This document shows, one piece after another, positions 39,232 through 62,804 of a DNA stretch of 64,000 bases; the stretch's first letter is position 1, and the number at the start of each line of letters is the position of its first letter. Origin of the DNA: Eledone cirrhosa (taxonomy: Eukaryota). Made by a program: the position numbers and the translations under genes. The stretch is taken from the NCBI GenBank assembly GCA_964016885.1, contig OZ024762.1:17546001-17610000 (forward strand), in the 5' to 3' direction. The notes beneath the pieces are model-generated. The model was not told where the DNA came from and ran no database searches. It saw only the letters and a list, made by a program, of their open reading frames with translations.

Positions 39232-39297
39232 AGAAACGGAAAGAAAGCGAGATAACACTTGGAATATGTCGTGTTATCTCGCTTTCTTTCCGTTTCT
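39232..39297. promoter_or_regulatory. Perfect 27-bp inverted repeat with 12-nt loop just upstream of the RNA-cassette TATA box
   Basis: agaaacggaaagaaagcgagataacac / gtgttatctcgctttctttccgtttct; function inferred from position only. Confidence 0.5.
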
Positions 39298-39360
39298 TTT
39301 TTTTTTTAAAAAAGAAAGAAATTTTTAGCTATAAATATGCCTATTTGACTCTGTAGAATT

Positions 39361-39525
39361 GCGGCTTGTGCGTGGCGCTGCACGTAGCGTTTCTGGCTTC
39401 GCTGTCGTACTTCGGTATGGCATGACCACTCGATCGTGTCTGAAGTTCGAATCGTTGCGGGGGTCGGCCGGGACCACAGCAGGCTGGCTTTATGCTGGCC
39501 TGCTCTCCCCCTCGCATGAGTTTTT
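39361..39525 (+). ncRNA. Putative Pol III structured small RNA gene, copy A (family unidentified)
   Basis: TATAAAT at 39330, A-box-like TGGCGCTGCACG at 39373, B box GTTCGAATC at 39445, T5 terminator, GC-rich hairpins including GUCGUAC-UUCG-GUAUGGC. Confidence 0.65.
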
Positions 39526-47563: not shown

Positions 47564-47728
47564 AAAAACTCATGCGAGGGGGAGAGCAGGCCAGCATAAA
47601 GCCAGCCTGCTGTGGTCCCGGCCGACCCCCGCAACGATTCGAACTTCAGACACGATCGAGTGGTCATGCCATACCGAAGTACAACAGCGAAGCCAGAAGC
47701 GCTACGTGCAGCGCCACGCACAAGCCGC
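47564..47728 (-). ncRNA. Putative Pol III structured small RNA gene, copy B
   Basis: Reverse complement of copy A with two pairing-compatible changes; TATAAGT upstream. Confidence 0.65.
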
Positions 47729-49322
47729 AATTCTACAGAGTCAAATAGGCATACTTATAGCTAACATTTTCCTTCTTTTTTAAAAAAAAAAGAAACGGAA
47801 AGAAAGCAAGATAACACGACATATTCCGAGTGTTATCTCGTTTTCTTTCCGTTTCTCTTTCTATATAAATATAACGGGATATATAGCCATTAAGTAACTG
47901 CTAGTGTTTTGTACATATATAACGGGATATACACGAATAGAAGCCAGGGAATATGTCGTAAAGGGTTGACTTATATAGGGAGTCAATAGTTTGACCATTT
48001 TCGCCAACTTCAAATTCTACGTAAATAAGGTTCGCATTTTTGCCCACTTCTCAGACATAAGATAGGGAGGAGGGTCACCTTATATTCGAGTATTTTGTAC
48101 ATCTATTCTTGTTAGACTAGACCGGCATCATCATGGGTAGAGCCGACCAGGTGCTACTGCGTTGAACGAGACTAAGGCTGCGATGGTCCTCAGGGCACTG
48201 CTGTCAATCGTCTTTGTGAGGGGCCACGTTTCTGCTCCATAGAGGAGAAGACTGATGCATCTTTTCAGAACAATTAATATGTAGGTAACATAGCCTTAGA
48301 GAGATCTGTATTTGTAATAGTTAGTATCGATTTGGGTAATCTTAAGACCATGATTCCAATCATCAATATATGTATTGATTAAACCTAAATATAGTATATA
48401 AAGAAGTGGATTTTAAAATATGCAATGATAGTGTCGAGAGAAGGCTTAGTTAGTTACTTCTAACAATGTACCACTATGAATAAGACAGAAGGCGGTGTAT
48501 GTAGATAGAATGTTTAGTTTTCCTGAGTATGAAGGGGTTTTAGTTATTATTCTTAGTAAAAAGACGGTTATATTATACATTTACGTCTCTAACATTCCTC
48601 CTGTATATGAAGGGTAGTGAAATATATTCTTGTGTCTCAGGAATAACTTACGTGTTTATCGATGAATTTAAGGGACAACTAAAAGATTACATACCTCTTT
48701 AGAAGAATGAAGGTGTATATATAAATGTAGCTTTATATGTGTATATTGATCTAGATAGGAAACGTTTCTTCCAGTGTATGGATTATAGAGGTGAATGCAT
48801 ACACTAAAGAAAGTTAATATATATATCTAAGACTGTATTTTCGAGTGTTTAGCAATGAATTAAAATATACATGGCAAATAAAGCGTTCGTATAGGTAAAT
48901 TAGAGGGTATTTTACCTCAGCTAAAGAACATTTATATATATATAAATCTAGTTTTGTGTGTGTATTTAGGTTTAAATAAAACAATATGTACGTCTCTAGA
49001 ATCTTTCTGTATATAGAATAATTGTTTCTACTTTTGGCACAAGGCCAGCAATTATCCAGTGCATTACTGGTACTTTATTTTATCGACCGCATAAGGATGA
49101 AAGGCATATAGAATAATGTATGTCTGTGAGTGTATATACGGCAAATAAAACATTACATACCTCTCACCATTAGTATAATATCCAGACTGATTCTATCAAA
49201 TTACACGAGTAAATCCAAACGATGTTAACAGTTTAATTCAATAAAGAAGAATGACAACAAACGAGAATAGTTCCAATCAGGGGCAAGTAATTCAAACGAT
49301 AACTCTCGGCGAATTTTTTAGT

Positions 49323-49476
49323 AAAAAAATCAATGCGAGGCGGGGACGCAGGCCAGCATAAAGCCGGGCTGCTGCCGCCGCAACGATTCGATCTTCAGAC
49401 ACATAGAATGGTCATGCCATACCGAAGTACGACAGCGAAGCCCGAAACGTTACGTGCAGCGCCATGCACAGAGCGC
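49323..49476 (-). ncRNA. Putative Pol III structured small RNA gene, copy C (diverged paralog)
   Basis: Mirror of copy D; TATA, A box, B box GATCGAATC, T7 terminator. Confidence 0.6.
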
Positions 49477-50509
49477 AACTCTACTGAGTAAATTAGTCAT
49501 ACTTATAGTTAGAATTTTATTTATTAAAAAAAAATATATATATAGAAACGGAATGAAGACGAGATAACTGAGGGCGTGGAGAAATATCTCTTTCTGAATA
49601 TATATATTTCGTATGGTGAGAGTTGAGATCTCTACCGAATAATTATCAATATTATACTTCGTCTCCGAAATATTTTCAGAAAGAAATTACTTTTTCACGA
49701 CCGTGTTACCTTACTTTCATCCCGTTTCTATATGTAACAAGTTTAAACTACTAGTATTTAATACATATATATATACAGAACAATAAGTATATTTACTTCA
49801 AGATAGTAATGTTTATGTTAATACAGAAAATAAAAAAATGCAAACCATCGATCTTAGTAATTAGTATCAATCACTAATTATCTATTTTGGTAATAAGCAT
49901 CTTAAGACCATGATTTCCTTCATCGATATGTGATTAGACCAAAATTTAGTATAATATATAAAGACTGTTCTCAGCTTATGACCAGTTTGCTTGGTGTTAA
50001 GTGTCTGGGAGTACAAGACTCTCCCTGGATAGTACGCTGGTCTACCACAGGACTAACTCCTCGGCTGTGAGTGCTGGAGCAATGTGATGAATGCAGAACT
50101 TCCAAACTGTGAGAGTTACATGTATGCATGGACCTGCAACTCCTAAGGGAGTCATACAGGCCACACATTGACATACAGTATTTCTAGGGCACTTTTTAAA
50201 ACCTGGCAGACCCATCTCCTCTCCAGGTCTGAATACAGCAGATTTCTTCCAGAGAAACAGAAGAATCAACCTCAATACTAGACTGGTACTTTGTTTTATC
50301 AACCTCAAATGGATGAAAGGCAAAGTTGACCTCAGCAGGATTTTAATTAAGAGAACTGAAGGCATTTTCTGTTACATTCATATATACATACTTACTTTGT
50401 CTAATAAACAAAACATCTTCTCTCTACACACACATAACATATAAAGCTACATTTATATATACCTCTTCTAAGAAATTAAACCTACTCTAGACTTACACAT
50501 AGATACAGT

Positions 50510-50857
50510 TCATCATCATCATCATCATTTCATTTTACGTCCGCTTTTCCCTGCTTGCAAGGGTGGGACGGGAATTGATGCTGGCTTGATTTCTACAGCT
50601 GGATGCCCTTCCTAACACCAACCTCATTTACAGTGAGTGCTGGGTGCTTTTTTGCCGTGGCACCTCCACGACCACTTTGCAGTGGAATTATAGGGACCCC
50701 AGTCCCTATCATCTCATTTCTACAGCTGAGTAAACTGGAGCAATGTGAAATAAAGTGTCTTGCTCAAGGAAACAACACATCACCCAGTCTGAGAATTGAA
50801 CTCACAACCTTTCGATTGCAAGCCCAATGCTCTAACCACTAAGCCATGTGCCTCCAC
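50510..50857 (-). mobile_element. Same tRNA-derived SINE, mirror copy
   Basis: Reverse complement of 59626-59970. Confidence 0.88.
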
Positions 50858-51494
50858 AGTTATATATAAATACTTACCTTGTCAAATAAACACAACTAAA
50901 TCTTCTCTAGTCAGACACACAAAGCTACATTTATATAAACATTCTTCTCTACAAAAGAGGATCAGCTGAAAAGCTCATAGGCTGGCTTTGAAGAAGTGAT
51001 GCTAGAACTGCGAGATATTGTGGTTAGGTTCATTATCATAGGACTTGGTGGAGCAATCAAAATTCACTGCCAACTCATGTACAACTTTATGATGTTCTTG
51101 ATTCATCGGTGAAAAAGAATGACTCTGATAGTTCTGTTTCATGTGAGGAAGACAAAAGGAAACCTTCAGAGTGTGCATTGAGCAATATGGGATATTTCTA
51201 GAATGTAACTAATGCTAACTTGAATCATCCTTGGACATCATCATACATGGTATATATATATAGTGTGTTTAGTACAGTGTAGTTGTAGCTAACTAGGTAT
51301 TTGGTTTTATGAAATGAAAGGGACAAAAAAACAAACTATATATATACACTGATATATGTGTTATAAGCAATCCAATACCACTGTTGGATAGATAGAGTGC
51401 TTAATCCTGCTTACACCAAAGTTTATGGATTAAGGTGGTGCAAACACAACACTTAAATAAAGGAAACAATATGTGGCCATAGTACAGAAAATTC

Positions 51495-51552
<58 letters not shown>

Positions 51553-51556
<4 letters not shown>

Positions 51557-51960
51557 TCGGGCTGGATTCTGTTGAGGGTCTTTGCCACAAGTGACATCAA
51601 TGAGATTCCCCTGTAGTTGTTCATGTTAGAAAGATCTCCCTTCTTTGGTACTGAGATGATGTTAGTGATCAAGGGCAACTTTCTCCAGTGCCTGGTTACA
51701 GAACTCCAGGATGATATCATCAAAATCACACCTCATCATCACTTTTGATGCCTCCCCATGGGTCATGATCTTCTTGGTTCGCTGAAGCCCCTCTCTGGCG
51801 AAGGTCCTGTCTCAATATCCAGTTCCTCAAACAGCTGTCTGATCTCCCTGGTATTCTGGGCTGTCGAAGGTGGCTCTCCTAGTAGGGTCTTAAAATGGTC
51901 CAGCCTCTTCTTATCCCCAGATCTAACTCAAACTACTTCTCTTCCTTCCTGTAATCTCGT
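51553..51960 (-). mobile_element. LINE RT fragment (RTE-like); mirror at ~58522-58929 on +
   Basis: IISVPKKGDLSNMNNYRGISLMSLVAKTLNRI. Confidence 0.85.
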
Positions 51961-52384
51961 TGATCATCATCCAGCTCTCTTTACACTTATATATATATAC
52001 ACTGACCTCCTACAAGGTTACATCTCAAAGGAGGTTTACACCAGTTCTTTTATCCCGAAACTTTTTCAGGAACTGTGGACAAGGAGTTTCTTATGGTTGT
52101 AAGTTTTTTGAAAGGGGAAAAATAACAGAAGGTGATTGTCGTGTGAAGGAGGAAGATTGGTAGAGCAATGGACTCCACAGACACTGGTAAGGGTAACTTA
52201 GAACAGGATGGAAAGGTATCCATGGTGAGTGAAAAACCTAACCATTGTTTCAGCTACAGCAGCAGAGGAGTTAAGTTATGGTGGGTTTGAAGAAAACAGA
52301 GTTGGATGTCTTCAATGTAGTGACTATATAGACCAGAGGCTTTCAACATAACTGATGAGTGTTTCAGTGGAGACCAGCAACCTC

Positions 52385-52595
52385 TGAGGAGCAGGGACTA
52401 CAGTAGTAGAGATAGAATAGGCAGAGGGAACGGCATATTTAGGGGCTGGGGAGAAGCAGAGACCACTGTAGTAGAGGTAGAGAGGGAACAGCATATTTAG
52501 GGTTGGGGAGGAGCAGAGACCATTGTAGTAGAGGTAGAGAGGGAACATCATATTTATGGGCTGGGGAGGAACAGAGACCATTGTAGTAGAGGTAT
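52385..52595. repeat. ~57-bp tandem repeat, ~3.5 copies; mirror at ~57888-58098
   Basis: agagaccaytgtagtagaggtagagagggaaca unit. Confidence 0.85.
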
Positions 52596-54154
52596 AATGT
52601 GCAGAAGGAGGAGAGACAATAATTGTGGACCAGAACCTGTTGAATTGTTGATAAAGCTGGAGTGTCATCCCTTAATGTAGCAACCTTGTCAACATGAATG
52701 TCCTTGGGGGATAAACCCCTTTTCTACACGTACTTGATAATACCACGATGCCAAATGTTGTCCATTTTCAAGAGGTCATTACTAATTACATTTGAAGTCC
52801 TCTTTCAACAGTCAGATGTCAGTTTACTTGGAAAGAAACAATGCAGTTATTATTAATAAGAAGAGTTGAAATTAATTCATGCAAGATTTCCCAGCTCTAG
52901 CATCAGTCCTTCATAGTCAGCCAACCTTCGTACTTCTGCTGGGTCAAGCCCGACGGAGACTGACGTCTTAAACAAGCCCCAACAAATAAGAAAGATTTAG
53001 AAGAGAATATACTAATTACTAGATATTCACACAAAAGTGACATTAGAATTATTGCTGGAAATAGCAGCCAAATATTTATCGCTCGCCACGTTTTAAAATA
53101 ATGAAGGACACATTAGAAGATGTAATTTTAGATAGTCATATATACACATATTTGTCAACGCTGGAATCTCATTGATTCTATATACATAAGTCGGTTCTCA
53201 GAAGACCTATTCAGGTTATGGGAACTGTTTGTCCCCCGTGTAAAAATTTGGCGTATATATATATAAATATATATATATACTTATATATGTCTGTATGCAT
53301 TTTGTTGGCGTTTAAATGGTGAAAATTTCATAAGGTAGCTGTTGTTTACTTTCATCGACAAGTCAGACCTGAGCGATCAAGACATATATTTACATATACA
53401 TAATCAAAAGTAAAAACATTGTTAATATCTTCCTACACAGATAAAATATAAAAGATTGTATTTACATGTGTCACAGCTAATTCACCTCCGTAATTCTTAG
53501 GAAACCTGGCTTCTATTTCTAGCAAGTGGAGCGTAGACGTAGAGACGTGTTGCTGTTGTTTACTTTTATTCACAGGTCTTGAACGAGCAAGACAAGATGA
53601 CCCGACATGTGTGTAATCGATGGTATACCTGCCGTGACCATCCTGTGTTTATATGATTATCAAGGTACTCACATCTACATCGTTGAATGCACCTTTCATT
53701 GTTTTAAAAGGGGTTGTAGAAGACAGAACATCTGAGGGTGAGAGGCCGGAGATCGTCAGTGAGTGGCTTTAAATTAATTAGCCATGATTCTATGAAATAA
53801 AGAAGCGAAATCACTTTGAAGAAAAATAGGAGAACAATAGTAATTATTATGAGGCCGGTGTAGCGATTACATATTGCCCTTTGTTTACATTAACCACTCC
53901 CGACACCATGGTAATTAGATATTCAGATTACAGGGAGGTGTGGGATGGAAGTAATTCTTTTATTTATTTACTTAACAACAAACACGGTGGCAAAGAGTAA
54001 ATTAAAAAAACTCGCCTTTTTATTTTAAAAAAAATCAAGCCTAACCTCTCCCATGATGCATCAGTGCGGCTAAATAAGTCGCAACAATGGGTGCATAAAT
54101 TATTTCGAATTTCTTAGTAATTATTTGTATATACTTACATTGTTTGCATATAAG

Positions 54155-55163
54155 GTAGGCTTAAAAGTTCATAGGCTCACTATGAAAGAGTGATGCTAGG
54201 GCTGTGCAATCTTGCATGTTGAAAAATAAACCTCATTTGGTCATTCCATGAGAGTATCTTGGTCAGCCTATGAAGGAGTGATGCTAGAGCTGTGCAATCT
54301 TGCATGTTGAAAAATAAACCTCATTTGGTCATTCCATGAGAGTATCTTGGTCAGCCTATGAAGGAGTGATGCTAGAGCTGTGCAATCTTGCATGTTGAAA
54401 AATAAACCTCATTTGGTCATTCCATGAGAGTATCTTGGTCAGCCTATGAAGGAGTGATGCTAGAGCTGTGCAATCTTGCATGTTGAAAAATAAACCTCAT
54501 TTGGTCATTCCATGAGAGTATCTTGGTCAGCCTATGAAGGAGTGATGCTAGAGCTGTGAAATCTTGCATGTTGAAAAATAAACCTCATTTGGACATTCCA
54601 TGAGAGTATCTTGGTCAGTCTATGAAGGAGTGATGCTAGAGCTGTGAAATCTTGCATGTTGAAAAATAAACCTCATTTGGTCATTCCATGAGAGTATCTT
54701 GGTCAGCCTATGAAGGAGTGATGCTAGAGCTGTGCAATCTTGCATGTTGAAAAATAAACCTCATTTGGTCATTCCATGAGAGTATCTTGGTCAGCCTATG
54801 AAGGAGTGATGCTAGAGCTGTGAAATCTTGCATGTTGAAAAATAAACGTCATTTGGACATTCCATGAGAGTATCTTGGTCAGTCTATGAAGGAGTGATGC
54901 TAGAGCTGTGAAATCTTGCATGTTGAAAAATAAACCTCATTTGATCATTCCATGAGAGTATCTTGGTCAGCTTATGAAGGAATGATGCTAGGGCTCTGCA
55001 ATCTTGCATGTTGAAAAATAAACCTCATTTGGTCATTCCATGAAAGTATCTTGGTCAGCCTATGAAGGAGTGATGCTAGAGCTGTGAAATCTTGCATGTT
55101 GAAAAATAAACCTCATTTGGTCATTCCATGAGAGTATCTTGTCAGCCTATGAAGGAGTGATGC
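54155..55163 (+). repeat. 88-bp satellite (~11 copies) derived from mariner termini
   Basis: Unit tatgaaggagtgatgctagagctgtgmaatcttgcatgttgaaaaataaacctcatttggtcattccatgagagtatcttggtcagcc; period 54269 to 54357. Confidence 0.95.
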
Positions 55164-55244
55164 TATATATATATATATATATATAGTTATATATACATGT
55201 ATATATATATATACATGTATAAATATATACATGTATATATATAC

Positions 55245-55985: not shown

Positions 55986-57550
55986 ATATATAAACAACTA
56001 TCTGGTTGTGGAACCAACCAACCAACCAACCAGAAATTTATAAGTTTGTAGATTTGTAAATTTATAAATTTATAAATATATAATAAATTGAAGTGAAACA
56101 ATTGGTGCGTGTGTTTCTTATTGGCAACATGACCCCCCCAAAGTATAACAATATCGGTTTCAACACACGATTTCAGATAAAGAATCTTGCTAAACAAATT
56201 CAGAAACGAAATATATATAAATGTATATATATATAATGATGTGTGCACCTATTAAAAATCCACAAAATCCTTTTAATATTGTCGTTTTCGTCCATAGCAA
56301 GTGTTCTTTCGAAATAATTTTTGCACCCATTTTTGCGATTAAGTAAAGACAGAGTTATCGTTCTTGAGATTTCGTCTTGGTGAAATTTAAGGAACTGATG
56401 TCGCTAAAGCGTCAACTTATTTAGCCGCACTGTTGCATCATGGGAGAGGTTAGGCTTGATTTTTTTTAAAATAAAAAGGCGAGTTTTTTTAATTTACTCT
56501 TTGCCACCGTGTTTGTTGTTAAGTAAATAAATAAAAGAATTACTTCCATCCCACACCTCCCTGTAATCTGAATATCGTGTCGGGAGTGGTTAATGTAAAC
56601 AAAGGGCAATATGTAATCGCTACACCGGCCTCATAATAATTACTATTGTTCTCCTATTTTTCTTCAAAGTGATTTCGCTTCTTTATTTCATAGAATCATG
56701 GCTAATTAATTTAAAGCCACTCACTGACGATCTCCGGCCTCTCACCCTCAGATGTTCTGTCTTCTACAACCCCTTTTAAAACAATGAAAGGTGCATTCAA
56801 CGATGTAGATGTGAGTACCTTGATAATCATATAAACACAGGATGGTCACGGCAGGTATACCATCGATTACACACATGTCGGGTCATCTTGTCTTGCTCGT
56901 TCAAGACCTGTGAATAAAAGTAAACAACAGCAACACGTCTCTACGTCTACGCTCCACTTGCTAGAAATAGAAGCCAGGTTTCCTAAGAATTACGGAGGTG
57001 AATTAGCTGTGACACATGTAAATACAATCTTTTATATTTTATCTGTGTAGGAAGATATTAACAATGTTTTTACTTTTGATTATGTATATGTAAATATATG
57101 TCTTGATCGCTCAGGTCTGACTTGTCGATGAAAGTAAACAACAGCTACCTTATGAAATTTTCACCATTTAAACGCCAACAAAATGCATACAGACATATAT
57201 AAGTATATATATATATTTATATATATATACGCCAAATTTTTACACGGGGGACAAACAGTTCCCATAACCTGAATAGGTCTTCTGAGAACCGACTTATGTA
57301 TATAGAATCAATGAGATTCCAGCGTTGACAAATATGTGTATATATGACTATCTAAAATTACATCTTCTAATGTGTCCTTCATTATTTTAAAACGTGGCGA
57401 GCGATAAATATTTGGCTGCTATTTCCAGCAATAATTCTAATGTCACTTTTGTGTGAATATCTAGTAATTAGTATATTCTCTTCTAAATCTTTCTTATTTG
57501 TTGGGGCTTGTTTAAGACGTCAGTCTCCGTCGGGCTTGACCCAGCAGAAG

Positions 57551-57840
57551 TACGAAGGTTGGCTGACTATGAAGGACTGATGCTAGAGCTGGGAAATCTT
57601 GCATGAATTAATTTCAACTCTTCTTATTAATAATAACTGCATTGTTTCTTTCCAAGTAAACTGACATCTGACTGTTGAAAGAGGACTTCAAATGTAATTA
57701 GTAATGACCTCTTGAAAATGGACAACATTTGGCATCGTGGTATTATCAAGTACGTGTAGAAAAGGGGTTTATCCCCCAAGGACATTCATGTTGACAAGGT
57801 TGCTACATTAAGGGATGACACTCCAGCTTTATCAACAATT
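57551..57840 (+). mobile_element. Mariner transposon 5' end with N-terminal transposase remnant; mirror at ~52642-52932 on -
   Basis: From 57718: MDNIWHRGIIKYV*KKG/LSPKDIHVDKVATLRDDTPALST (mariner HTH-like); terminus begins ta|cgaaggttggctga. Confidence 0.8.
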
Positions 57841-58926
57841 CAACAGGTTCTGGTCCACAATTATTGTCTCTCCTCCTTCTGCACATTATACCTCTACTAC
57901 AATGGTCTCTGTTCCTCCCCAGCCCATAAATATGATGTTCCCTCTCTACCTCTACTACAATGGTCTCTGCTCCTCCCCAACCCTAAATATGCTGTTCCCT
58001 CTCTACCTCTACTACAGTGGTCTCTGCTTCTCCCCAGCCCCTAAATATGCCGTTCCCTCTGCCTATTCTATCTCTACTACTGTAGTCCCTGCTCCTCAGA
58101 GGTTGCTGGTCTCCACTGAAACACTCATCAGTTATGTTGAAAGCCTCTGGTCTATATAGTCACTACATTGAAGACATCCAACTCTGTTTTCTTCAAACCC
58201 ACCATAACTTAACTCCTCTGCTGCTGTAGCTGAAACAATGGTTAGGTTTTTCACTCACCATGGATACCTTTCCATCCTGTTCTAAGTTACCCTTACCAGT
58301 GTCTGTGGAGTCCATTGCTCTACCAATCTTCCTCCTTCACACGACAATCACCTTCTGTTATTTTTCCCCTTTCAAAAAACTTACAACCATAAGAAACTCC
58401 TTGTCCACAGTTCCTGAAAAAGTTTCGGGATAAAAGAACTGGTGTAAACCTCCTTTGAGATGTAACCTTGTAGGAGGTCAGTGTATATATATATAAGTGT
58501 AAAGAGAGCTGGATGATGATCAACGAGATTACAGGAAGGAAGAGAAGTAGTTTGAGTTAGATCTGGGGATAAGAAGAGGCTGGACCATTTTAAGACCCTA
58601 CTAGGAGAGCCACCTTCGACAGCCCAGAATACCAGGGAGATCAGACAGCTGTTTGAGGAACTGGATATTGAGACAGGACCTTCGCCAGAGAGGGGCTTCA
58701 GCGAACCAAGAAGATCATGACCCATGGGGAGGCATCAAAAGTGATGATGAGGTGTGATTTTGATGATATCATCCTGGAGTTCTGTAACCAGGCACTGGAG
58801 AAAGTTGCCCTTGATCACTAACATCATCTCAGTACCAAAGAAGGGAGATCTTTCTAACATGAACAACTACAGGGGAATCTCATTGATGTCACTTGTGGCA
58901 AAGACCCTCAACAGAATCCAGCCCGA

Positions 58927-58986
<60 letters not shown>

Positions 58987-59625
58987 GAATTTTCTGTACT
59001 ATGGCCACATATTGTTTCCTTTATTTAAGTGTTGTGTTTGCACCACCTTAATCCATAAACTTTGGTGTAAGCAGGATTAAGCACTCTATCTATCCAACAG
59101 TGGTATTGGATTGCTTATAACACATATATCAGTGTATATATATAGTTTGTTTTTTTGTCCCTTTCATTTCATAAAACCAAATACCTAGTTAGCTACAACT
59201 ACACTGTACTAAACACACTATATATATATACCATGTATGATGATGTCCAAGGATGATTCAAGTTAGCATTAGTTACATTCTAGAAATATCCCATATTGCT
59301 CAATGCACACTCTGAAGGTTTCCTTTTGTCTTCCTCACATGAAACAGAACTATCAGAGTCATTCTTTTTCACCGATGAATCAAGAACATCATAAAGTTGT
59401 ACATGAGTTGGCAGTGAATTTTGATTGCTCCACCAAGTCCTATGATAATGAACCTAACCACAATATCTCGCAGTTCTAGCATCACTTCTTCAAAGCCAGC
59501 CTATGAGCTTTTCAGCTGATCCTCTTTTGTAGAGAAGAATGTTTATATAAATGTAGCTTTGTGTGTCTGACTAGAGAAGATTTAGTTGTGTTTATTTGAC
59601 AAGGTAAGTATTTATATATAACTGT

Positions 59626-59970
59626 GGAGGCACATGGCTTAGTGGTTAGAGCATTGGGCTTGCAATCGAAAGGTTGTGAGTTCAATTCTCAGACTGGGTG
59701 ATGTGTTGTTTCCTTGAGCAAGACACTTTATTTCACATTGCTCCAGTTTACTCAGCTGTAGAAATGAGATGATAGGGACTGGGGTCCCTATAATTCCACT
59801 GCAAAGTGGTCGTGGAGGTGCCACGGCAAAAAAGCACCCAGCACTCACTGTAAATGAGGTTGGTGTTAGGAAGGGCATCCAGCTGTAGAAATCAAGCCAG
59901 CATCAATTCCCGTCCCACCCTTGCAAGCAGGGAAAAGCGGACGTAAAATGAAATGATGATGATGATGATG
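59626..59970 (+). mobile_element. tRNA-derived SINE with CORE-like body and RTE-derived 3' tail
   Basis: A box tggcttagtggttaga, B box gagttcaattc, body ccttgagcaagacactt, tail cccacccttgcaagcagggaaaagcggacgtaaaatg..(atg)n. Confidence 0.88.
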
Positions 59971-61004
59971 AACTGTATCTATGTGTAAGTCTAGAGTAGG
60001 TTTAATTTCTTAGAAGAGGTATATATAAATGTAGCTTTATATGTTATGTGTGTGTAGAGAGAAGATGTTTTGTTTATTAGACAAAGTAAGTATGTATATA
60101 TGAATGTAACAGAAAATGCCTTCAGTTCTCTTAATTAAAATCCTGCTGAGGTCAACTTTGCCTTTCATCCATTTGAGGTTGATAAAACAAAGTACCAGTC
60201 TAGTATTGAGGTTGATTCTTCTGTTTCTCTGGAAGAAATCTGCTGTATTCAGACCTGGAGAGGAGATGGGTCTGCCAGGTTTTAAAAAGTGCCCTAGAAA
60301 TACTGTATGTCAATGTGTGGCCTGTATGACTCCCTTAGGAGTTGCAGGTCCATGCATACATGTAACTCTCACAGTTTGGAAGTTCTGCATTCATCACATT
60401 GCTCCAGCACTCACAGCCGAGGAGTTAGTCCTGTGGTAGACCAGCGTACTATCCAGGGAGAGTCTTGTACTCCCAGACACTTAACACCAAGCAAACTGGT
60501 CATAAGCTGAGAACAGTCTTTATATATTATACTAAATTTTGGTCTAATCACATATCGATGAAGGAAATCATGGTCTTAAGATGCTTATTACCAAAATAGA
60601 TAATTAGTGATTGATACTAATTACTAAGATCGATGGTTTGCATTTTTTTATTTTCTGTATTAACATAAACATTACTATCTTGAAGTAAATATACTTATTG
60701 TTCTGTATATATATATGTATTAAATACTAGTAGTTTAAACTTGTTACATATAGAAACGGGATGAAAGTAAGGTAACACGGTCGTGAAAAAGTAATTTCTT
60801 TCTGAAAATATTTCGGAGACGAAGTATAATATTGATAATTATTCGGTAGAGATCTCAACTCTCACCATACGAAATATATATATTCAGAAAGAGATATTTC
60901 TCCACGCCCTCAGTTATCTCGTCTTCATTCCGTTTCTATATATATATTTTTTTTTAATAAATAAAATTCTAACTATAAGTATGACTAATTTACTCAGTAG
61001 AGTT

Positions 61005-61158
61005 GCGCTCTGTGCATGGCGCTGCACGTAACGTTTCGGGCTTCGCTGTCGTACTTCGGTATGGCATGACCATTCTATGTGTCTGAAGATCGAATCGTTG
61101 CGGCGGCAGCAGCCCGGCTTTATGCTGGCCTGCGTCCCCGCCTCGCATTGATTTTTTT
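61005..61158 (+). ncRNA. Putative Pol III structured small RNA gene, copy D (diverged paralog)
   Basis: TATAAGT at 60974 (31 nt upstream, as in A), same UUCG hairpin, B box GATCGAATC, T7 at 61152-61158. Confidence 0.6.
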
Positions 61159-62604
61159 ACTAAAAAATTCGCCGAGAGTTATCGTTTGAATTACTTGCCC
61201 CTGATTGGAACTATTCTCGTTTGTTGTCATTCTTCTTTATTGAATTAAACTGTTAACATCGTTTGGATTTACTCGTGTAATTTGATAGAATCAGTCTGGA
61301 TATTATACTAATGGTGAGAGGTATGTAATGTTTTATTTGCCGTATATACACTCACAGACATACATTATTCTATATGCCTTTCATCCTTATGCGGTCGATA
61401 AAATAAAGTACCAGTAATGCACTGGATAATTGCTGGCCTTGTGCCAAAAGTAGAAACAATTATTCTATATACAGAAAGATTCTAGAGACGTACATATTGT
61501 TTTATTTAAACCTAAATACACACACAAAACTAGATTTATATATATATAAATGTTCTTTAGCTGAGGTAAAATACCCTCTAATTTACCTATACGAACGCTT
61601 TATTTGCCATGTATATTTTAATTCATTGCTAAACACTCGAAAATACAGTCTTAGATATATATATTAACTTTCTTTAGTGTATGCATTCACCTCTATAATC
61701 CATACACTGGAAGAAACGTTTCCTATCTAGATCAATATACACATATAAAGCTACATTTATATATACACCTTCATTCTTCTAAAGAGGTATGTAATCTTTT
61801 AGTTGTCCCTTAAATTCATCGATAAACACGTAAGTTATTCCTGAGACACAAGAATATATTTCACTACCCTTCATATACAGGAGGAATGTTAGAGACGTAA
61901 ATGTATAATATAACCGTCTTTTTACTAAGAATAATAACTAAAACCCCTTCATACTCAGGAAAACTAAACATTCTATCTACATACACCGCCTTCTGTCTTA
62001 TTCATAGTGGTACATTGTTAGAAGTAACTAACTAAGCCTTCTCTCGACACTATCATTGCATATTTTAAAATCCACTTCTTTATATACTATATTTAGGTTT
62101 AATCAATACATATATTGATGATTGGAATCATGGTCTTAAGATTACCCAAATCGATACTAACTATTACAAATACAGATCTCTCTAAGGCTATGTTACCTAC
62201 ATATTAATTGTTCTGAAAAGATGCATCAGTCTTCTCCTCTATGGAGCAGAAACGTGGCCCCTCACAAAGACGATTGACAGCAGTGCCCTGAGGACCATCG
62301 CAGCCTTAGTCTCGTTCAACGCAGTAGCACCTGGTCGGCTCTACCCATGATGATGCCGGTCTAGTCTAACAAGAATAGATGTACAAAATACTCGAATATA
62401 AGGTGACCCTCCTCCCTATCTTATGTCTGAGAAGTGGGCAAAAATGCGAACCTTATTTACGTAGAATTTGAAGTTGGCGAAAATGGTCAAACTATTGACT
62501 CCCTATATAAGTCAACCCTTTACGACATATTCCCTGGCTTCTATTCGTGTATATCCCGTTATATATGTACAAAACACTAGCAGTTACTTAATGGCTATAT
62601 ATCC

Positions 62605-62804
62605 NNNNNNNNNNNNNNNNNNNNNNNNNNNNNNNNNNNNNNNNNNNNNNNNNNNNNNNNNNNNNNNNNNNNNNNNNNNNNNNNNNNNNNNNNNNNNNNN
62701 NNNNNNNNNNNNNNNNNNNNNNNNNNNNNNNNNNNNNNNNNNNNNNNNNNNNNNNNNNNNNNNNNNNNNNNNNNNNNNNNNNNNNNNNNNNNNNNNNNNN
62801 NNNN
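62605..62804. other. Assembly gap (200 N)
   Basis: Run of N. Confidence 0.99.

Follow-up and report, generated by a model that had tools for sequence, protein, structure and literature searches.

A likely Pol III-made, lineage-specific RNA gene family in Eledone cirrhosa with a predicted fold kept between distant copies

Lineage-specific structured RNAs that RNA polymerase III (Pol III) makes are most familiar from mammals (4.5SH, snaR) and viruses (VA), with 4.5SH RNA being derived from B1. Rodent 4.5SH genes have a TATA-like box at -31/-24 beside their type 2 promoter and occur in hundreds of copies, each within a DNA repeat of 4-5 kb (PMC7279448), while great-ape snaR is a Pol III RNA that was spread by segmental duplication with a flanking-DNA core and binds NF90, a dsRNA-binding protein (PMC3045588). 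Here, we analysed a window of 64,000 nucleotides from Eledone cirrhosa (assembly GCA_964016885.1, contig OZ024762.1, positions 17,546,001 to 17,610,000) and found four related copies in it, A and B of type II and C and D of type I (Table 1). Judged from the sequence, they likely represent a lineage-specific, unannotated family without an Rfam model, the product of which is likely made by Pol III.

The family resembles 4.5SH in being lineage-restricted, in combining a type 2 promoter with a TATA box and in having hundreds of genes in kb-scale repeats, Pol III transcription being a prediction here. However, the 4.5SH repeats are arranged in tandem, whereas the cephalopod loci are scattered over at least 13 chromosome-scale contigs and form convergent pairs for the most part. 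A parent RNA for the cephalopod family was not found. With snaR it shares a structured RNA (predicted here) and spread by segmental duplication with a flanking core, but snaR stems from the Alu left monomer and SRP derivation is unsupported for the cephalopod family; an SRP/Alu origin was rejected since 325 and 307 of 1000 shuffles scored as high against the SRP RNA of the genome. The predicted layout is similar to that of VA RNA I/II as given in PMC7589676: the A box lies near or in a terminal stem, the B box in a long arm, a domain follows on the 3' side, the end is a U-run, and two subtypes often stand in tandem. Yet the loci lie on host chromosomes, viral genes were not seen there, the GGGU of copy A lacks an ACCC partner and most type III/IV copies are without a predicted terminal stem, so that VA RNA serves as an analogy only; membership was rejected, with no coding region in the interiors of nine pairs and no ACCC in copy A. 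We regard the family as a member of none of 4.5SH, snaR and VA RNA.

Vault RNA (RF00006) offers further parallels, namely a TATA box near -30, internal boxes, paired ends and clustered paralogs of two types, but is half the length, and a separate vault cluster passes the Rfam cut-off while the family does not. The covariance model gave no match, the genome's own vault RNA showed no consistent homology, and a vault paralog is not supported. Rfam gave no match on the body, neither for the window at the gathering score nor for three subtypes at E 10, if one antisense lncRNA match far below its cut-off is disregarded. ARAGORN found no tRNA genes in the window and the Rfam tRNA matches lie elsewhere, at 50785 and 59633, which argues against a tRNA.

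Other gene clusters of the genome were noticed as well. The vault cluster (C3:221.18-221.25 Mb; L073-L080) has 14 matches over the Rfam cut-off, of two types (87 nt and 93 nt) that frequently stand in tandem, with a TATA box near -30; in protostomes, to our knowledge, the annotation of vault RNAs is poor. A tandem U6 array (C19:31.78-31.84 Mb; L063-L072) holds about 30 genes with a 5' stem-loop unlike that of dispersed U6, and in five of the ten fetched copies a SINE-like piece stands in place of the upstream element. Of 25 SRP RNA genes, 23 are clustered at C12:42.10-42.13 and 42.86 Mb (L081-L092), mostly 1.2-1.5 kb apart. Several hemocyanin genes with about seven units each, which is the octopod pattern, lie at C1:173.74-173.91 Mb and C26:21.93-22.02 Mb (L272-L275), the two on C26 forming an inverted pair; with the best units of PDB 6r83, 4yd9 and 1js8, which we take to be squid or octopus proteins, a hemocyanin frame reached 647-655 bits, versus 502 bits with 3j32, presumably a gastropod protein. 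We read these genes as those of a coleoid cephalopod, likely an octopod.

Table 1 Coordinates of family copies, their elements and the surrounding duplication within the window.
Feature	Position	Strand	Basis or remark
Copy A, type II RNA body (predicted)	39361-39525	+	sequence, fold
Copy A TATA	39330-39337	+	sequence
Copy A B box	39444-39454	+	sequence
Copy A T5	39521-39525	+	sequence
Copy A upstream palindrome	39232-39296		sequence
Copy B, type II	47564-47728	-	tandem, 1.75 kb downstream of C; faces A
Copy C, type I	49323-49476	-	body identical to D
Copy D, predicted RNA body of type I (about 150 nt)	61005-61158	+	+1 inferred from TATA spacing
D TATA box at -31	60974-60981	+	sequence
D A-box-like element at +13	61017-61027	+	6/9 defined consensus positions
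D predicted terminal stem, 5' strand	61009-61015, partner 61145-61151	+	fold, pair probabilities
D predicted long imperfect arm	61018-61108 (61018-61045 with 61084-61108)	+	includes CUUC/GAAG, closes two-hairpin junction
D UUCG hairpin	61048-61065	+	pair probabilities, helix-level test
D B box, type I form, A at consensus T	61087-61097	+	7/10 defined positions
D 3' GC-rich hairpin	61109-61133	+	pair probabilities, helix-level test
D T7 run, predicted Pol III terminator	61152-61158	+	sequence
D upstream palindrome, left arm	60752-60778	.	sequence
D upstream palindrome, right arm	60913-60936	.	region conserved like body between subfamilies
Inverted duplication, 6.2 kb, right arm (carries D)	56415-62604	.	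self-comparison
Inverted duplication, 6.2 kb, left arm (carries C)	47877-54079	.	self-comparison

Fetching from the 3.0 Gb genome yielded at least 188 distinct loci on 15 contigs, a lower bound on copy number, with 89 loci on the contig of the window (C23), 22 on C22, 18 on C13, 15 on C25 and 13 each on C20 and C15. Genome scans gave 103 matches with a 19-mer motif (control 0) and 258 with a B-box 21-mer at up to 3 mismatches (control 5). Besides types I and II, we distinguish group III, consisting of older and longer copies (at 76-90%), and type IV, a young subfamily of 17 copies (at 97-100%) on C13/C15. Neighbouring copies form 55 convergent pairs 2.5-15 kb apart, 7 divergent and 10 same-direction arrangements and 32 tandems under 2.5 kb. 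Most copies share flanks on both sides, the upstream homology ending raggedly without a common terminus, a downstream motif is common to 168 of the 188 loci, and the interiors of nine examined convergent pairs hold satellites and no shared ORF. Shared ragged-ended flanks and the lack of a shared interior ORF point towards spread by DNA duplication, not by retroposition of a small RNA. A terminal-inverted-repeat or Helitron element was rejected for want of common ends and of an internal ORF, and a SINE because flanks are shared on both sides and an A10+ tail occurs in just 2/188 loci; for target-site duplications, a shared end that could serve as anchor was not found.

In the window itself, the arms of the inverted duplication are 99.8% identical and adjoined by an N gap; such a near-perfect palindrome could have formed very recently or could be an artefact of assembly. 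The gap (62605-62804) coincides with the place, about 1.75 kb downstream of D, at which a mirror image of copy B should stand, so that it may conceal a fifth copy. An 88-bp minisatellite (54180-55165) lies close to the centre of the duplication, and positions 1-24883 hold an 11.3 kb tandem duplication (about 97%) with fragments of a Helitron-type Pif1 helicase and a reverse transcriptase. The palindrome upstream of the copies has 27-bp arms, both of which are intact in 101/188 loci, and each arm carries GGAA and GATA-like words; the palindrome is a candidate enhancer. It was rejected as an RNA hairpin, with 17 distinct G-U against 13 A-C mismatches and no clear strand bias.

Beyond this genome, a 151-nt contig of a second organism (another study, run type unknown) matches 47573-47724 of copy B with 6 differences and 1 gap, which would be a weak hint of conservation. 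Sequencing runs X1-X3 cover 30/30 bins like genomic DNA and, as they possibly stem from the very organism of the window, do not count as independent; run X5 covers 5/30 bins, and no weight is given to its missing cover of the flanks. The motif scan of metagenomes gave no match and that of viruses two, extending to at most an 18-nt hairpin match.

The spacing between TATA box and +1 is 31 nt in 152 of the 157 parsed loci; at a U6 locus of the same genome (L061) it is 30 nt. The consensus sequences used were GGTTCRAnYCY for the B box and TRGYnnARBGG at +12 to +22 for the A box, both from PMC7279448. The B-box core reads GTTCGAATC in 115/188 loci and GATCGAATC in 56/188, the two forms together accounting for 171/188; it agrees with the consensus at 8/10 defined positions in type II and 7/10 in type I, and is located at +83/84, later than the usual +54-64. 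An A instead of the consensus T was found in 31/35 type I copies, and many group III copies have the same form. The A box is weak, being in the right position (+13) with 6/9 defined positions. In the common layout the end is a T4-7 run; a T-run of at least four ends 75/76 type II and 33/35 type I copies. An octamer-containing element at about -78 is present in 7/12 U6 loci of the genome; since inspection by eye did not find it upstream of A and D, a type 3 (U6-like) promoter was rejected and the promoter was read as type 2 with a TATA box.

Folding of single copies gave structures more stable than chance for D (z -3.70, 0/200 shuffles as stable) and A (z -2.87, 1/200). In the predicted RNA, two hairpins cap a long imperfect arm and there is also a 3' hairpin; in types I and II, a terminal stem of 5' and 3' ends closes the fold. 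In the long arm, which holds the B box, CGUARCG pairs with CGUUGCG (probability 0.57-0.85), and the B-box strand pairs upstream (P > 0.5) in 96/120 distinct bodies. Pair probabilities of the terminal stem are 0.99-1.0 in type II and 0.65-0.85 in type I; it is predicted in 51/53 type II and 20/24 type I bodies, but only in 5/26 bodies of type III and 2/17 of type IV, and such a low frequency in groups III/IV (7/43 bodies) counts, at the level of the fold model, against a universal fold. On alignment A1 (54/70 distinct type I/II bodies, leaving out copies with larger deletions or rearrangements), none of 500 shuffles equalled the long-arm alternative structure on three measures, whereas on two others, which count pairs or types, it did not stand above them all; the excess is due to one inherited register shift. 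Three 'compensatory' pairs of the terminal stem reported by RNAalifold were likewise discarded as a single register shift inherited by a subtype, and hence one event at most.

A preliminary description of this DNA, made from the letters of copies A-D, had proposed several stems and selection on RNA structure rather than on an ORF; we found it right in kind and partly wrong in detail. The letters quoted for the copies are all present in the sequence, and A and B differ at exactly the two positions named. As the bodies of C and D are one and the same sequence and lie in opposite arms of the inverted duplication, the comparison comprised three sequences of two subtypes. Mean pair probabilities over 29 type II and 25 type I sequences agree with the UUCG hairpin (0.65-0.73 and 0.76-0.80, respectively), with the CUUC/GAAG helix (0.83 and 0.87) and with a 3' hairpin retained in C/D (0.96-1.0 and 0.61-0.89), in which one type I pair is lost, as had been claimed. 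The centrepiece of the argument, a 3' stem UGC-GGSGG/CCSCC-uc-GCA with a double G:C to C:G swap, fared badly: its pair probability is 0.00 in type II and at most 0.03 in type I, and forcing it to form makes the folds of A, B and C/D less stable by 8-11 kcal/mol. It is improbable since UUGC is taken by the long arm and GCA by the terminal stem. The 5-bp core is fully paired in 43 of the 104 parsable copies (19/33 type I, 24/71 type II; 7/111 type I/II copies were unparsable), the supposedly swapped middle pair is G.G, C.A, G.A or A.A in 36/104, and a structure-blind alignment places the 3' G of the stem in an indel common to type I and part of type II. For GCGCUG/UAGCGY, the A/B letter difference exists, but the hairpin itself has a probability of at most 0.12 in type II and 0.00 in type I. 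The 'C-A mismatch in D' is indeed unpaired there, yet it is a trait of type I as a whole (24/25 rows unpaired) and not of D; in the long arm, the same site is a G-U to A-U change (29 G-U, 22 A-U, 3 broken). Taken as a whole, the earlier structure is matched by 472/500 shuffles, which pair as many cells in the 54 aligned bodies.

To compare distant copies, we took the structure from copy A alone and re-placed the substitutions of each distant copy randomly on like bases. The number of broken pairs was 1/45 against a random expectation of 8.6 in L166, 2 against 9.7 in L196, 2/41 against 8.3 in L247, 3 against 9.4 in L174, 6 against 9.8 in L172 and 6 against 12.6 in L212; for type I, it was 2 against 4.6-4.9 (P 0.05-0.06). 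Across four distant copies of groups III/IV, the CUUC/GAAG, UUCG and 3' hairpin helices lost 0-1 of 17-21 pairs, with 3.7-6.4 expected (P 0.001-0.009), MFE-only helices gave a weaker result (P 0.016-0.26), and these copies share ancestry, so that they amount to about two independent comparisons. The two helices unique to the preliminary description broke at or above the chance rate (P 0.82-0.997). The antisense fold was neutral (P 0.24-0.67), indicating that the effect is specific to the sense strand, and the tolerated changes are chiefly G-U wobbles, which are workable only on the strand running from TATA box to terminator. At the sequence level, the predicted fold is kept between distant copies beyond chance.

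The larger alignment, which had been suggested as a check of the proposed stems, yielded no single significant pair in a tree-aware all-pairs test (best E 1.4; 99 rows, 554 substitutions) that was our own G-test/APC script with a parsimony null rather than R-scape, kept 99/120 distinct bodies (21 dropped for gaps) and has low power owing to 2.8 substitutions per column. A compensatory change from U-A to C-G at 43-62 recurs, with 89/89 rows canonical, and one from G-C to A-U at 110-149 is found in two type III copies. Codon periodicity is absent from the substitutions (143/153/165, P 0.45), single-base indels are common and 15/46 type II rows have a net length of -1 relative to A; with neither periodicity nor frame conservation, a protein-coding gene was rejected. 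Selection on RNA structure rather than on an ORF thus holds at the family level, by the helix-level test and the missing codon signal, but neither for the two discarded helices nor for recent type I variants. In comparisons of deep subfamilies, the divergence of the body (0.15-0.22 per site) is hardly below that of the flanks (0.14-0.30 per site).

Types I and II have 89% identical bodies and upstream regions of only 41-65% identity, and they differ in recent history. Type II bodies differ by 2.5-2.9% and their flanks by 5-11% (76 copies; 75 comparisons), a contrast that is weakened because copies were sought by the similarity of their bodies, so that conserved ones are favoured, and because gene conversion could homogenise bodies without selection. 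Type I bodies, in contrast, differ by 3.0% and their well-aligned near flanks by 1.3-2.0% (35 copies). Recent type II variants avoid the breakage of pairs (20 versus 28.5 expected, P 0.005; 9 versus 12.9, P 0.05 on a cleaner alignment), whereas recent type I variants behave neutrally (27 pair-breaking versus 27.3 expected; P 0.41 and 0.52 on two alignments). With no recent constraint seen in type I bodies and variants, D is likely a relaxed or decaying passenger of a I-II cassette whose ancestor was constrained. Chimeras of types I and II exist (L054, L060, L102). Two other type II copies (L116:1397-1560 and L117) carry, in place of the 3' hairpin region, the upstream part of the body once more in inverted orientation.

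We favour, with a probability of roughly 0.6, the reading that the family consists of Pol III RNA genes under birth-and-death evolution that encode a folded non-coding RNA of 150-190 nt acting via dsRNA-binding proteins, D being likely relaxed. TFIIIC would bind the internal boxes and TFIIIB the TATA box, and Pol III would start at about G61005 and stop at the T-run. The transcript would then fold into the long imperfect arm with its two capping hairpins and the 3' hairpin, with the terminal stem in types I and II. Segmental and inverted duplication together with gene conversion would drive birth and death of copies, type II being under constraint and type I being carried along in I-II cassettes. 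The RNA might finally serve as decoy or scaffold for dsRNA-binding proteins, our committed guess and the least supported step, suggested by the VA-RNA-like layout only and rather doubtful. Cephalopods are known for RNA editing and RNA-level regulation. A bolder version, in which octopods evolved an abundant VA-RNA-like Pol III transcript of the host from hundreds of genes in paired cassettes, its long imperfect duplex titrating ADAR, Dicer or Exportin-5 and thereby tuning RNA editing and microRNA output, appears a long shot.

But could the fold serve the element instead of the host? A selfish non-autonomous mobile element, i.e. a Pol III unit whose fold promotes its own copying or local hopping, comparable to SINE source genes or transposons bearing small RNA genes, would account for young chromosome-restricted subfamilies (the 17 copies at 97-100% on C13/C15), numerous decayed or truncated copies, 55 convergent pairs that look like terminal inverted repeats and a body only modestly above its flanks in conservation between subfamilies. 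We nevertheless regard it as unlikely: the upstream homology ends raggedly at many points without a common terminus, the nine convergent-pair interiors have no protein-coding region in common, Helitron pieces match just 3/237 fetched stretches (2 sites), and retroposition of a Pol III RNA cannot give copies that carry the upstream promoter and the downstream flank, with A-tails in 2/188. The B box being the best-kept motif (171/188, in two forms), an upstream palindrome conserved like the body and the existence of chimeric copies would also fit a DNA-level element, with the B box as TFIIIC insulator or organiser site, palindromes and uniformity arising from hairpin repair and gene conversion, and an incidental RNA. 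Such an element would hardly explain why tolerated changes are mostly G-U wobbles on the TATA-to-terminator strand alone, why the antisense fold is neutral and why TATA spacing and terminator are kept, which makes it quite improbable. Least credible to us is that the family diverged very far from a paralog among the known Pol III RNAs (vault, SRP/Alu or the head of a tRNA-derived SINE). The type 2 promoter layout and short words shared with the genome's own vault RNA (reached by 8 and 17 of 1000 shuffles) speak for it, but the bodies of three subtypes have no Rfam match, separate vault and SRP clusters exist in the same genome, and among 30 comparisons of five subfamily copies with vault, SRP, U6 and a local SINE the best reached 5/500, with no target being consistent.

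In titles and abstract openings of the literature on non-coding RNAs and repeats of cephalopods and molluscs, we found no description of the family. Four short motifs are absent from four supplementary text files of a study on octopus microRNAs (PMC9699675), microRNA tables of which may lie outside these files, and 'polymerase III' and 'vault' do not occur in its main text. Unclassified SINEs and unknown repeats are given without sequences in the accessible part of PMC13282606, so a repeat library may already contain the unit without a name for it. Standard surveys likely miss the family, as its RNA would have no tail of the poly(A) signal type and would be too long for microRNA libraries. Under the reading as Pol III RNA genes, the family would be a candidate for a new regulatory RNA in animals that stand out for regulation at the RNA level, and constrained type II beside relaxed type I genes would offer a natural experiment in birth-and-death evolution.
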